Shown one piece after another: positions 37,354-40,315 of a stretch of 64,000 nucleotides of DNA. Source of the DNA: Candidatus Eiseniibacteriota bacterium (lineage in GTDB: Bacteria; Eisenbacteria; RBG-16-71-46); the NCBI GenBank assembly GCA_025360715.1, contig JANYBS010000031.1, positions 1,708 to 65,707 of the forward strand, given 5' to 3'. Both the position numbers and the translations under genes were made by a program. How positions within the stretch are numbered: the stretch's first letter is position 1; every line of letters starts with the position of its first letter. The notes below the pieces were generated by a model, which saw only the letters and a program-made list of their open reading frames with translations, was not told where the DNA came from and did no database searches.

Positions 37354-38790
37354 ATGAAGTCCCTCGTGACCCGACTGACTGCCGCTCTGCTGGCGCTCGT
37401 GGCCGTCGTCCTGCTCGCTGGCGCTGCCGCGAAGAGCGCGACGATCGCTTCGCCCGACAAGCTCGTCATCCTCTCCACGACCGACGTGAAGGGGAAGACG
37501 AGCCCTTGTGGCTGACACACGCCCAAAGGTGGCCTCGCCCGGCGGGCGAGCTTCGCGGACAGTCTCAAAGCGCAGTACGGCCAGGTCGCTCTGGTCGACA
37601 ATGGTGGGTTCTTCCCCGAACTCGAGGACTATCAGGACGTCGCCTGGTTCCTGATGGACTCGATGAAGCTCCTTGGCATCGACGCGATCGGCGTCAGTGA
37701 GAAGGAGTTGCGCTGGGGCAAGAGCTTCCTCATGGCCAACTACAAGCGCACGCAGGCTCCGCTCGTGTGCGCGAACCTGTACGACAAGGCGACCAAGAAG
37801 ACGCTGGTGGCCCCGTACCTCATCAAGAAGATCGGCGCGGTCAATGTTGGATTCTTCGGCCTGACCAGCGACAAAGTGGACATGGGGATCTCGCGTGATT
37901 CGCTCACGGTGGAAGACCCGTCGGTCGCCGCCAAGCGCACGGTCGAGGAGATGCACAAGAAAGGCGCGACGGTCGTCGTGCTGCTGTCGATGCTGGGCAA
38001 GGTCGAAGCCGAGGACCTGGTCAGCTCGGTGGATGGCATCGACGTCGTGATCGTGGGACGCAACACGCCGCTGCTGCAGAAGGGCCGGCTGATCAAGAAC
38101 ACGATCGCCTGCTACGGCGGTGAGCAGGGTCAGTACATCGGGCGCACGCTGGTGTCGCTCGATGCGGGCAAGAAGATGACCACGGGCGAGAACGATACGT
38201 ACATCCTTGGCCCCGAAGTCGGCGAGAAGCCCGAAGTGCTCACCCTGGTGAAGAGCTTCGAAGACAACTTCAACGACAAGCTGCGCAAGGCCGAGAAGGC
38301 CCGCGCCGCCAAGGCCGAGATCGACAAGGCCAACGGTGGAACGGGCACGACCGAGCAGGCGGTGGACCACTATCTGGGCGCCGAGCTCTGCCAGCGTTGT
38401 CACGCCGAAGAGTACAAGCAGTGGCAGGGAACGGGGCACGCAGGCGCATGGCAGACACTCGTCACCCAGAAGAAGGAAGCGACTCCCGACTGCATCCCGT
38501 GCCACGTGCTCGGGTACAAGCAGTCGGGCGGCTTCCAGACGGGCGACGATGCGCCGCGGTTGGCGAACGTCCAGTGCGAGAGCTGCCACGGCATGGGCAC
38601 GACGCACGAGTCGTATCCGGCGCAGACGAAGCGGATCACGGAGGCAACCTGCAAGGGCTGCCACACGATCAGCAACAGCCCGGCGTTCGACTTCGCGATC
38701 TACGAGCCGCATATCCTGCATCACCCGCCGGCCTCGATGCCGCCCCTGCCGCCGAATCCGGCGAAGCAGAAGATGATGGGCGGACACTGA
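37354..38790 (+). CDS. Degenerate 5'-nucleotidase-like domain fused to a tetraheme cytochrome c domain, containing in-frame UGA (candidate selenocysteine) at codon 54
   Basis: GAGGAGAG RBS plus ATG 37354, then signal peptide MKSLVTRLTAALLALVAVVLLAGAAA. In-frame TGA at 37513-37515 in SPCG-TGA-HTPKGG, where paralog 38870..40315 has TGC (Cys). Same frame as track ORF 37654..38790 with no other stop. Four CxxCH motifs: CQRCH, CIPCH, CESCH, CKGCH. Confidence 0.6.
37513..37550 (+). other. In-frame UGA plus downstream hairpin (candidate bacterial SECIS)
   Basis: TGA at 37513-37515. Stem CTCGCCC (37534-37540), loop GGC, stem GGGCGAG (37544-37550); loop G is ~26 nt from the UGA. The small 3-nt loop makes this a weak structural match. 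Confidence 0.35.
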
Positions 38791-38869
38791 CGGCTGTTCC
38801 ATGCGACCAAGAGGGCTCCGGACCGGGCGCACCGGTCCGGAGCCATTTCGTTTCCGGGAGAGGGCTTTC

Positions 38870-40315
38870 ATGAAGCGCTTGCTCGAATACGGTCCCAGCC
38901 GCGCGATGTCCATCCTGCTGCTCGCGGTGCTCGTGAGCGGCGCTGCACCCGCGCCCGTGGCCACCATGGCCGATCCCGAACACCTGATCGTGCTCTCGAC
39001 GACTGACGTGAAGGGCAAGACGAGCCCGTGCGGCTGCCACACGCCCAAGGGCGGTCTGGCGCGCCGCGCCGCGTATATCGACAGCATGCGCGCCGAGCAT
39101 GGCCAGATGATCGTCGTGGACGCAGGCGGGTTCTTCCCCGAGGTCGAGCTGCAGAAGGACGCCGGGCCCTTCACGCTGCGGCTCATGAAGCAATTGGGCA
39201 CCGACGCGGCCGGCGTGGGCGAGCGCGACATGCGCTTTGGCTATGCGTTCCTGCGCGACAATGCCAAGGCGGCTGGCATGCCGCTTCTGTGCGCGAACCT
39301 GTACGACAAGGCCAGCGGCCGCCCAGCGTTCGCGCCGTCGCTCATCAAGAAAGTGGGCAACGTCACGGTCGGCGTCTTCGGCGTGATCACGGCCAAGGCG
39401 GATCTCGGCCCAGGCCGCGATTCGCTGCGGGTGGAGGATCCGCTGCCGGCGGCGGCGCGCGCAGTGGAGGACCTGCGCAAGCGCGGTGCCACGGTGATCG
39501 TGATGCTCTCGCAGCTGGGCAAGATAGAGGGCGAGGACCTGGCGGCGTCGGTCGATGGCATCGACGCCGTGATCCTGGGCCGCGACGTGACGCTGGTCGA
39601 GCGTGGCCGCCTGATCAAGCACACGATCGCCGCCTACGGTGGGGACCAGGGCTGGTATGTGGGCCTGACCAAGCTCACGCTCGACGCCAAGCACGCCGTG
39701 GTCAGCAGCGAGAACGAGATGAGCATGCTGGGCCCGGAAGTGCCCACCGACGAGAAGGTGCTCACGCAGGTGAAGGCGTTCGAGGACCAGCTCAACGAGC
39801 GCCTGCGCGCACATGAACATGAGGAAGCGGTGCGCCAGAACCTTGCTGTGGCCGACGATGCCGAGGACCAGCCGGACCACTACATCGGCGCCGAACTCTG
39901 CGCTCGCTGCCACAGCAAGGAGTACACGCAGTGGCAGGGCACGCCGCACGCGCACGCGTGGGCCACCTTGGTCGCGCAGAAGAAAGATGCCACGCCCGAG
40001 TGCGTGAAATGCCATGTGCTCGGCTACCAGAAGGTCGGCGGCTTCCGCACGGGCGACGATGCGCCGCGCTTGGCGAACGTGCAGTGCGAGAGCTGTCACG
40101 GCATGGGCACGCAGCACGAGAGCATGAAGAGTGCGCTGGCGCCGGTGAGCGAACTCACCTGCCGCGGTTGCCACGACGGCACGTCGAGCCCGACGTTCGA
40201 CTTCGCCGTATACCGCCCGCACATCCTGCACACGCCGCCGGCGGACCTGAAGCCGCTGCCCGAGAGCCCGGCGAAGAAGCTCATGCGCATGCAGGGCAAC
40301 AAGGGCACGAACTAG
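38870..40315 (+). CDS. Paralog of 37354..38790 with Cys at the UGA position: degenerate 5'-nucleotidase-like domain plus tetraheme cytochrome c
   Basis: ATG at Met 24. Signal peptide. LIVLSTTDVKGKTSPCGCHTPKGG. 5'-NT-like blocks LCANLYDK and VGVFGVITAKAD. CxxCH x4: CARCH, CVKCH, CESCH, CRGCH. Confidence 0.85.
   Translation: MKRLLEYGPSRAMSILLLAVLVSGAAPAPVATMADPEHLIVLSTTDVKGKTSPCGCHTPKGGLARRAAYIDSMRAEHGQMIVVDAGGFFPEVELQKDAGPFTLRLMKQLGTDAAGVGERDMRFGYAFLRDNAKAAGMPLLCANLYDKASGRPAFAPSLIKKVGNVTVGVFGVITAKADLGPGRDSLRVEDPLPAAARAVEDLRKRGATVIVMLSQLGKIEGEDLAASVDGIDAVILGRDVTLVERGRLIKHTIAAYGGDQGWYVGLTKLTLDAKHAVVSSENEMSMLGPEVPTDEKVLTQVKAFEDQLNERLRAHEHEEAVRQNLAVADDAEDQPDHYIGAELCARCHSKEYTQWQGTPHAHAWATLVAQKKDATPECVKCHVLGYQKVGGFRTGDDAPRLANVQCESCHGMGTQHESMKSALAPVSELTCRGCHDGTSSPTFDFAVYRPHILHTPPADLKPLPESPAKKLMRMQGNKGTN

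Follow-up and report, generated by a model that had tools for sequence, protein, structure and literature searches.

Two adjacent genes, par1 and par2, occupy positions 37354-40315 of the DNA analysed here, a 64-kb stretch (the window) of contig JANYBS010000031.1 from Candidatus Eiseniibacteriota bacterium. Each is predicted to encode an exported protein in which a degenerate N-terminal domain of the 5'-nucleotidase (UshA) type, bearing a Pro-Cys-Gly-Sec/Cys motif, is joined to a tetraheme cytochrome c module. The last residue of the motif is specified by an in-frame TGA in par1, read here as selenocysteine (Sec, U), and by a cysteine codon in par2. The features of the pair are as follows.

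37264-37293, + strand: promoter-like element TTGACG-18-TAGACT upstream of par1
37336-37343, + strand: ribosome-binding site (RBS) GAGGAGAG of par1, as read from the sequence, 10 nt upstream of the ATG at 37354
37354-38790, + strand: par1, predicted Sec-containing UshA-like/tetraheme protein with a signal peptide and the motif P51-C52-G53-U54
37474-38340, + strand: par1 degenerate 5'-nucleotidase-type N-domain and long linker helix (bounds approximate)
37513-37515, + strand: in-frame TGA, predicted Sec codon, residue 54 of par1, aligned with Cys56 of par2
37534-37550, + strand: selenocysteine insertion sequence (SECIS)-like hairpin CUCGCCC-GGC-GGGCGAG, with a 7-bp stem, beginning 18 nt past the UGA and lying over the L-A-R-R-A codons
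38389-38721, + strand: par1 c554-like tetraheme module, CxxCH at 38389, 38491, 38575 and 38650, with three conserved distal His
38814-38844, + strand: terminator-like 13-bp hairpin followed by ATTTCGTTTC, between par1 and par2
38870-40315, + strand: par2, the Cys paralog, 481 aa, with the motif P53-C54-G55-C56

With the TGA read through, the par1 product is 478 aa long and shares 58% identity with par2 across 465 aa; par2 is itself present in the database at 100% identity (P0001). The motif reads SPCG-TGA-HTPKGG in par1 and SPCGCHTPKGG in par2. Export of both proteins, proposed in the initial annotation of this DNA, is predicted from their basic and hydrophobic N-terminal segments and from the need of c-heme attachment for the periplasm. 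The signal-like N-termini are present in both proteins, and in the AlphaFold2 (AF2) model of par2 a helix at residues 8-23 lies within this segment; export itself is an extrapolation from these features.

Two local signals bear on how the pair may be expressed. The hexamers of the promoter-like element are kept in an Eisenbacteria relative, locus L001 (TTGACC-18-TAGACT, L001 6373-6402), with diverged flanks, and the same locus has a hairpin at the equivalent intergenic place (7930-7970). A hairpin between the genes and a conserved promoter-like element before the Sec gene together suggest that the two isoforms are expressed separately, possibly in a selenium-dependent manner. The stop codon of par1 is also TGA (38788-38790) and is without a Sec-type hairpin at the right distance, so that within one gene TGA would mean Sec where the hairpin follows and stop where it does not.

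The in-frame TGA and its hairpin

The alignment of the par1 TGA with a cysteine of its paralog, which the initial annotation had implied, recurs well beyond this locus. A census was taken of 73 genes, in 71 loci, that encode the motif followed by four CxxCH. Across many phyla the Sec position is TGA in 46 of these genes and TGC or TGT in the other 27, and the open reading frame (ORF) is conserved on both sides of the in-frame TGA. The Sec forms have in common a hairpin that spans the G-G-L-A-R-R-A codons and has a GGC or GGA loop. At least 6 bp are formed in 40/46 Sec forms, mostly in the same register, versus 8/27 Cys forms (Mann-Whitney p=5e-7). When 43 distinct Sec sequences are compared, pairing is found in 86.6% of cells, a value that 0 of 500 shuffles reach and that slid registers approach to 50.6% at most. 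Compensatory changes are present as well, one pair for example being GC 19 times, CG 12 times and UG 5 times. Folding of the single sequence past the par1 UGA is not better than that of shuffles in this GC-rich DNA (z=0.57), and what makes the hairpin convincing is the comparison across Sec forms. On the recurrence of the TGA and on a conserved, covarying hairpin rests the conclusion, comparative in nature, that the TGA of par1 is a genuine selenocysteine codon.

The possibility that par1 is a pseudogene was considered and rejected: ahead of the TGA its ORF, signal peptide and motif are conserved, and genes from different phyla share the TGA. No tRNA, tRNA-Sec included, was found in the 64-kb window with ARAGORN, there was no Rfam match at gathering cutoffs, and no sel genes were detected among the 30 large window ORFs scanned. 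In one Cys form (TGC; locus L084 near 6052) the SECIS register is still occupied by a 9-bp hairpin, whose loop is GCA instead of GGC or GGA, and this gene looks like a recent Sec-to-Cys conversion.

Protein architecture, family and distribution

The N-terminal ~300 residues are assigned to the 5'-nucleotidase N-domain fold, as the initial annotation had proposed, by a phmmer match to PDB 2z1a (6e-14), which improves to 1.4e-25 with the family profile. The AF2 model of par2 (mean predicted local distance difference test score, pLDDT, 86.3; predicted template modelling score, pTM, 0.77) scores above 95 in the N-domain except in the loop 51-60, and superposes on CD73 and UshA over ~306 columns, the long inter-domain helix included (Foldseek E ~1e-23). 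Neither protein matches Pfam Metallophos (PF00149) or 5_nucleotid_C (PF02872) at E<=1. The eight canonical positions of motifs I-V were read from the profile alignment to 2z1a and from a 72-member family alignment, in par2 numbering.

Motif I: canonical D, H; window clade D46 (kept), K48
Motif II: canonical D; window clade G87
Motif III: canonical N, H; window clade E118, R119
Motif IV: canonical H; window clade Q215
Motif V: canonical H-x-H; window clade R238-x-V240

The window clade keeps only one of the eight metallophosphatase positions, D46. Family-wide the number of canonical metal ligands kept ranges from 0 to 5, and about 30 of the 72 relatives retain 3 to 5. The loss of the dimetal ligands, which the initial annotation had inferred for the two paralogs, therefore stands for their clade and does not extend to those ~30 relatives; by this alignment it is clade-specific rather than family-wide. 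The C-G-[U/C] motif is present in all 72 relatives, which come from many phyla. The universal residues of the N-domain across these sequences are C54, G55, C/U56, G61, G62, R65, R66, G86, N143 and D232, and only two Cys/Sec positions are conserved in it. Because C-G-U/C is invariant despite the lost ligands, the role of the motif appears to be independent of them.

The C-terminal part is a predicted c554-type tetraheme module, again in keeping with the initial annotation. PF13435 (Cytochrome_C554) is the only Pfam match of the proteins (61.6 and 64.4 bits versus a cutoff of 20.8), and each has four CxxCH, at residues 346, 380, 408 and 433 of par1 and 344, 378, 406 and 431 of par2 (39899, 40001, 40085 and 40160 in the DNA). 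The heme part was aligned to hemes I-III of c554, including the W-x-x-T-x-H-A distal histidine. The four CxxCH, E407, H360 and H416 (par2 numbering) are present in 72/72 sequences and H454 in 67/72. The module follows the same linker helix that carries the substrate-binding domain in CD73 and UshA.

This arrangement, which the initial annotation took for an unrecognised architecture, proved to be catalogued already. The top NCBIfam match of both proteins is NF041198 (UshA_like_PCGU, 'UshA-like (seleno)protein'), at 273.9 bits for par1 (U read as C) and 268.1 bits for par2 versus a curated cutoff of 275. The match of the N-domain spans profile positions 3-274 and that of the heme region alone positions 346-518 (139.8 and 126.5 bits), so that the fusion is already part of the curated model. 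On this model relatives built in the same way score 192 to 368 bits, and members above the cutoff with the same two-part layout are found in other phyla (L020, 287 bits; L047, 277; L059, 368; L064, 357). By profile score, par1 and par2 are marginally sub-threshold members of a catalogued selenoprotein family without characterised function, and the finding in the window is a rediscovery of this family rather than a new architecture. The family is thus annotated but has no established function, and the profile alignment shows that the metal ligands are not all kept. A 'COG0737 UshA-like, CxU' selenoprotein was listed in 2008 in the Global Ocean Sampling (GOS) selenoproteome paper (Zhang and Gladyshev; PMC2398784), and a CxU UshA-like selenoprotein is listed in two reviews (PMC9312934, PMC13188914); none of the three mentions hemes or a function for it. 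Searches of the literature for nucleotidase, multiheme and selenocysteine in combination, for a metallophosphoesterase domain in multiheme cytochromes, or for selenocysteine in Eisenbacteria returned nothing.

Comparison with known families places the pair more exactly. The window proteins share with NF041198 the whole architecture and the P-C-G-U/C motif, but leave profile positions ~275-345 unmatched and belong to a clade in which the loss of metal ligands has gone further than in many members; a tandem Sec and Cys pair was seen only in the window and in L001. With 5'-nucleotidase, UshA and CD73 they have in common the N-domain fold and the inter-domain helix, whereas 7/8 catalytic/ligand positions are replaced, the C-G-U/C motif is added, and a tetraheme cytochrome stands in place of the nucleotide-binding C-domain. 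SoxB thiosulfohydrolase, in contrast, has a dimanganese site and no hemes; its model (TIGR04486) gives 57.5 and 53.3 bits versus a cutoff of 550, and its ligands are absent from the window proteins. Cytochrome c554 (Nitrosomonas europaea CycA, PDB 1BVB; NF043010, 44 bits versus a cutoff of 400) is a free carrier, whereas here a c554-like portion forms a fused domain of ~130 aa. The 'UshA-like (seleno)protein family 2' (NF049981) is likewise a degenerate UshA-like selenoprotein and is matched weakly (E 5e-5 and 2e-5), but it has a CxxU motif and a 262-position profile without hemes, on which the window proteins score 23-24 bits versus a cutoff of 140.

Relatives are widespread. With one genome scanned per species, they turned up in at least 463 species-level genomes, from phyla that include Eisenbacteria, Krumholzibacteriota, Latescibacterota, Fibrobacterota, Acidobacteriota, Poribacteria, Verrucomicrobiota, Planctomycetota, Myxococcota, Thermodesulfobacteriota, Nitrospirota and Pseudomonadota. 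An exhaustive protein search gave 723 cluster representatives (50% identity) at E<=1e-30. In many of these the match starts only at query residue 61-63, as would be expected of proteins cut short at the UGA. In L001 the annotation breaks the Sec gene into pieces of 52 and 411 aa (6470-6628 and 6677-7912). Public annotations thus split or truncate the Sec forms of what is a large family, present in aerobic and anaerobic phyla alike and using Sec in most sampled members. The names given to relatives are 'hypothetical protein', 'multiheme c-type cytochrome' and '2',3'-cyclic-nucleotide 2'-phosphodiesterase', and many are unnamed. Three relatives (P0157, P0239, P0205) are fused to DUF1573/HYDIN-like immunoglobulin (Ig) domains, or to Big_5 and fn3 domains, and some members may for this reason be displayed on or tethered to the surface.

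A putative thiol:cytochrome c oxidoreductase and its alternatives

The reading favoured here, to which a probability of about 0.5 is assigned, is that par1 and par2 are Sec and Cys isoforms of a periplasmic redox enzyme, a selenenylsulfide/heme relay that would act as a thiol:cytochrome c oxidoreductase with electrons flowing in one direction or the other. The 5'-nucleotidase N-domain would serve as a scaffold only, its dimetal site dismantled and Lys or Arg occupying the place of former metal-binding His. The invariant Cys-Gly-Sec/Cys is borne on a loop between former motif I and helix 1, and the Cys-Sec/Cys pair would cycle between the selenol/thiol and the selenenylsulfide (or disulfide) states. 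Electrons would be exchanged with the four c-type hemes of a c554-like chain, located where the nucleotide-binding domain would otherwise be, and the chemistry would in this way be coupled to the periplasmic cytochrome pool. Thiols or disulfides, whether of proteins or small molecules, are the likeliest substrates, with sulfane sulfur as a further possibility. By analogy, the enzyme might work as does Mia40 (CPC) with Erv1, passing electrons to cytochrome c, or as DsbB does in reoxidising DsbA. The likeness to Mia40/Erv1 and DsbA-DsbB is one of function only, in that a CXC or CxxC pair takes electrons from substrate thiols and hands them to a respiratory carrier; there is no relation in sequence or fold, and a flavin or quinone site is not evident. 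The two genes may be used according to selenium supply, given that a promoter-like element of its own precedes the Sec gene and a terminator-like hairpin follows it.

A Cys/Sec redox role was preferred to metal-dependent phosphoesterase chemistry in the initial annotation and remains the best-supported reading, with C-G-U/C invariant and the ligands mostly gone. An oxidoreductase acting on thiols is favoured by the invariant C-x-U/C, the use of Sec, the heme chain and fusions to thioredoxin-fold domains. Selenocysteine elsewhere sits at catalytic redox positions, and its use here points to catalytic redox chemistry; CXC motifs were reportedly found to be redox-active by Woycechowsky and Raines in 2003. 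Of the longer cluster representatives, six (P0140, P0143, P0152, P0196, P0216 and P0220) have thioredoxin-fold fusions, as does locus L066 (5809-7845). The fused domain matches Pfam DSBA, Thioredoxin_4 or GILT, has the motif CP[FY][GA] or CIHC and an S-P-T loop, and by these sequence features points to thiol/disulfide-type exchange. P0140 and P0143 contain two N-domain modules each, the first of which is heme-less and has the motif PCEC. A stand-alone copy of the fused domain was sought in all ORFs of the window and of 85 loci, and only the fused L066 copy was found. The redox role of the motif is further favoured by heme-less paralogs of the N-domain, which adjoin heme-bearing genes in four loci (L005:9623-10618; L012:4571-5638; L024 near 2831; L040 near 4880) and keep CGC, or CG-TGA in that of L040. 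The two that were tested, from L005 and L012, match NF041198 at positions 12-276 and 4-300 with ~137 bits.

Several observations weigh against such a relay. Thioredoxin-fold fusions are found in a few per cent of relatives, with Pfam scores of 25.8 to 31.2 bits that lie near the cutoffs, and one fused protein, P0220, has YGY for CGC at residues ~76-78, owing perhaps to decay of this copy or to an error in sequencing or assembly. Within the N-domain the AF2 model is least confident at the CGC loop, where pLDDT falls under 50 for residues 57-59. Among the 71 loci clustered, no neighbouring gene accompanies the family from one phylum to another, and literature searches gave no experimental work on any member of the family. 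Lastly, about 30 of the 72 relatives, mostly Sec forms, keep the Asp of motif I, the Asp of motif II and the His of motifs IV and V, with Glu replacing the motif III Asn, and a metal may thus still have a role in some branches of the family.

This last pattern is also an argument for an alternative in which Cys and Sec ligate a new metal centre in place of the dimetal site, yielding a hydrolytic or redox metalloenzyme that feeds the hemes or is fed by them. Selenocysteine does ligate metals in formate dehydrogenase and [NiFeSe] hydrogenase, and the loop, to judge from the metallophosphatase fold, would be anchored at both ends beside the former metal site. Such a centre is unlikely all the same, since the window clade retains D46 alone of the eight ligands and has K48, R119 and R238 at former ligand positions, and since the N-domain offers just two conserved Cys/Sec residues. 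It is distinctly unlikely that the loop instead provides heme 2, of c554 type, with its sixth ligand or a second-sphere residue and so creates a catalytic heme with thiolate or selenolate ligation, as in TsdA or SoxAX, for chemistry on sulfur or selenium oxyanions: the CxC is kept in the heme-less paralogs and in the heme-less first modules of P0140 and P0143, and c554 itself requires no sixth ligand.

A further alternative holds that the N-domain is an inert pseudoenzyme scaffold, the C-G-C a structural disulfide and the whole protein a plain electron-transfer cytochrome. In CD73 two loop cysteines do form a disulfide. Vertebrate 5'-nucleotidases have two Cys in the equivalent loop, as seen in alignments to 5h7w and 7d0v. 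However, the spacing in the present family is invariantly C-x-C and not C-x5-C, and 63% of sampled family genes use Sec at this place and maintain a SECIS hairpin, a cost that to our knowledge is not paid for structural bonds; this alternative is extremely unlikely. The selenenylsulfide/heme relay, to which the hypotheses on function have thus been narrowed, is testable, and the narrowing follows from the invariance of C-G-U/C under uneven decay of the metal site, from the covarying SECIS hairpin and from the thioredoxin-fold fusions. A bolder version, advanced as speculation and at long odds, is that the family is a previously undescribed soluble periplasmic thiol (or sulfane-sulfur/selenium):cytochrome c oxidoreductase, with Cys-Gly-Sec on a dead phosphatase scaffold wired to four c-hemes; in a variant of it, the selenolate may ligate the open heme of the c554 type. 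If true, hundreds of species, most of them uncultured, would possess in it a heme-based functional counterpart of DsbB/VKOR or Erv1.

Genomic neighbourhood

Three further genes of the window enter into the comparison of neighbourhoods.

16426-19959: LptD, ~17 kb from par1 and par2
40349-41881: cystathionine beta-synthase (PALP+CBS), listed ORF with a likely start at GTG 40490, downstream of par2
41878-43047: cystathionine gamma-lyase, downstream of the beta-synthase

The initial annotation had placed the pair directly upstream of the beta-synthase and gamma-lyase and had taken this as a hint of sulfur or selenium metabolism. The order is correct, and in L001 it recurs as Sec gene, Cys gene, beta-synthase, gamma-lyase and DUF4097. 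The metabolic hint fared less well, as the two enzymes adjoin the family gene in only 5 to 9 of 71 loci, all of Eisenbacteria/Krumholzibacteriota type. When neighbours were clustered over the 71 loci, recurrent partners appeared only in those of Eisenbacteria, Krumholzibacteriota and Fibrobacterota type, in the order ROK kinase (8 loci), LptD (17), family gene, a ~300-aa protein (8) and an RNase T-type exonuclease (8), with gamma-lyase (9) and beta-synthase (5) further downstream. Judged by this gene order, the recurrent neighbourhood is a housekeeping syntenic block.

A role of the pair in the metabolism of sulfur or selenium amino acids together with the two enzymes, such as the handling of H2S or H2Se that these release, would draw on the order family gene, beta-synthase, gamma-lyase in the window and in L001, L008, L009, L012, L028, L034, L044, L052 and L058, some of which have family proteins only 28-32% identical to the window protein. 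These loci nevertheless all come from one group of related phyla, in which the family gene also lies directly after LptD in 17 related loci of the housekeeping block, and in Acidobacteriota, Planctomycetota, Verrucomicrobiota, Pseudomonadota and other loci the neighbours are unrelated. In the window the beta-synthase gene is preceded by a 174-nt gap and its own RBS, and the two transsulfuration enzymes are cytoplasmic whereas the family protein is predicted to be exported. Such a role is very unlikely, and an operon link to the two enzymes, entertained as a candidate, was downgraded to lineage synteny in view of the unrelated neighbours in other phyla.

Other genes of the window were noted in passing. 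Between LptD and the pair, within 21246-30537, lies a copper-type efflux cluster. It comprises a heavy-metal P-type ATPase (HMA domain), an outer-membrane efflux protein, a protein of CusB type that has a heavy-metal-binding domain, and a CusA-like resistance-nodulation-division (RND) pump, and is followed, within the same interval, by a zincin/tetratricopeptide repeat (TPR) protein, a Ser/Thr kinase-PD40 protein and an S9 peptidase. The intervals 43560-46345 and 46969-50780 encode a 'toastrack' protein (DUF4097), a membrane protein resembling bactofilin, and the A and B subunits of hydantoinase/oxoprolinase. Past the gamma-lyase of L001 the same order is seen, with DUF4097, a protein matching DUF8173 and hydantoinase A, and with an extra VTT-domain gene in between.

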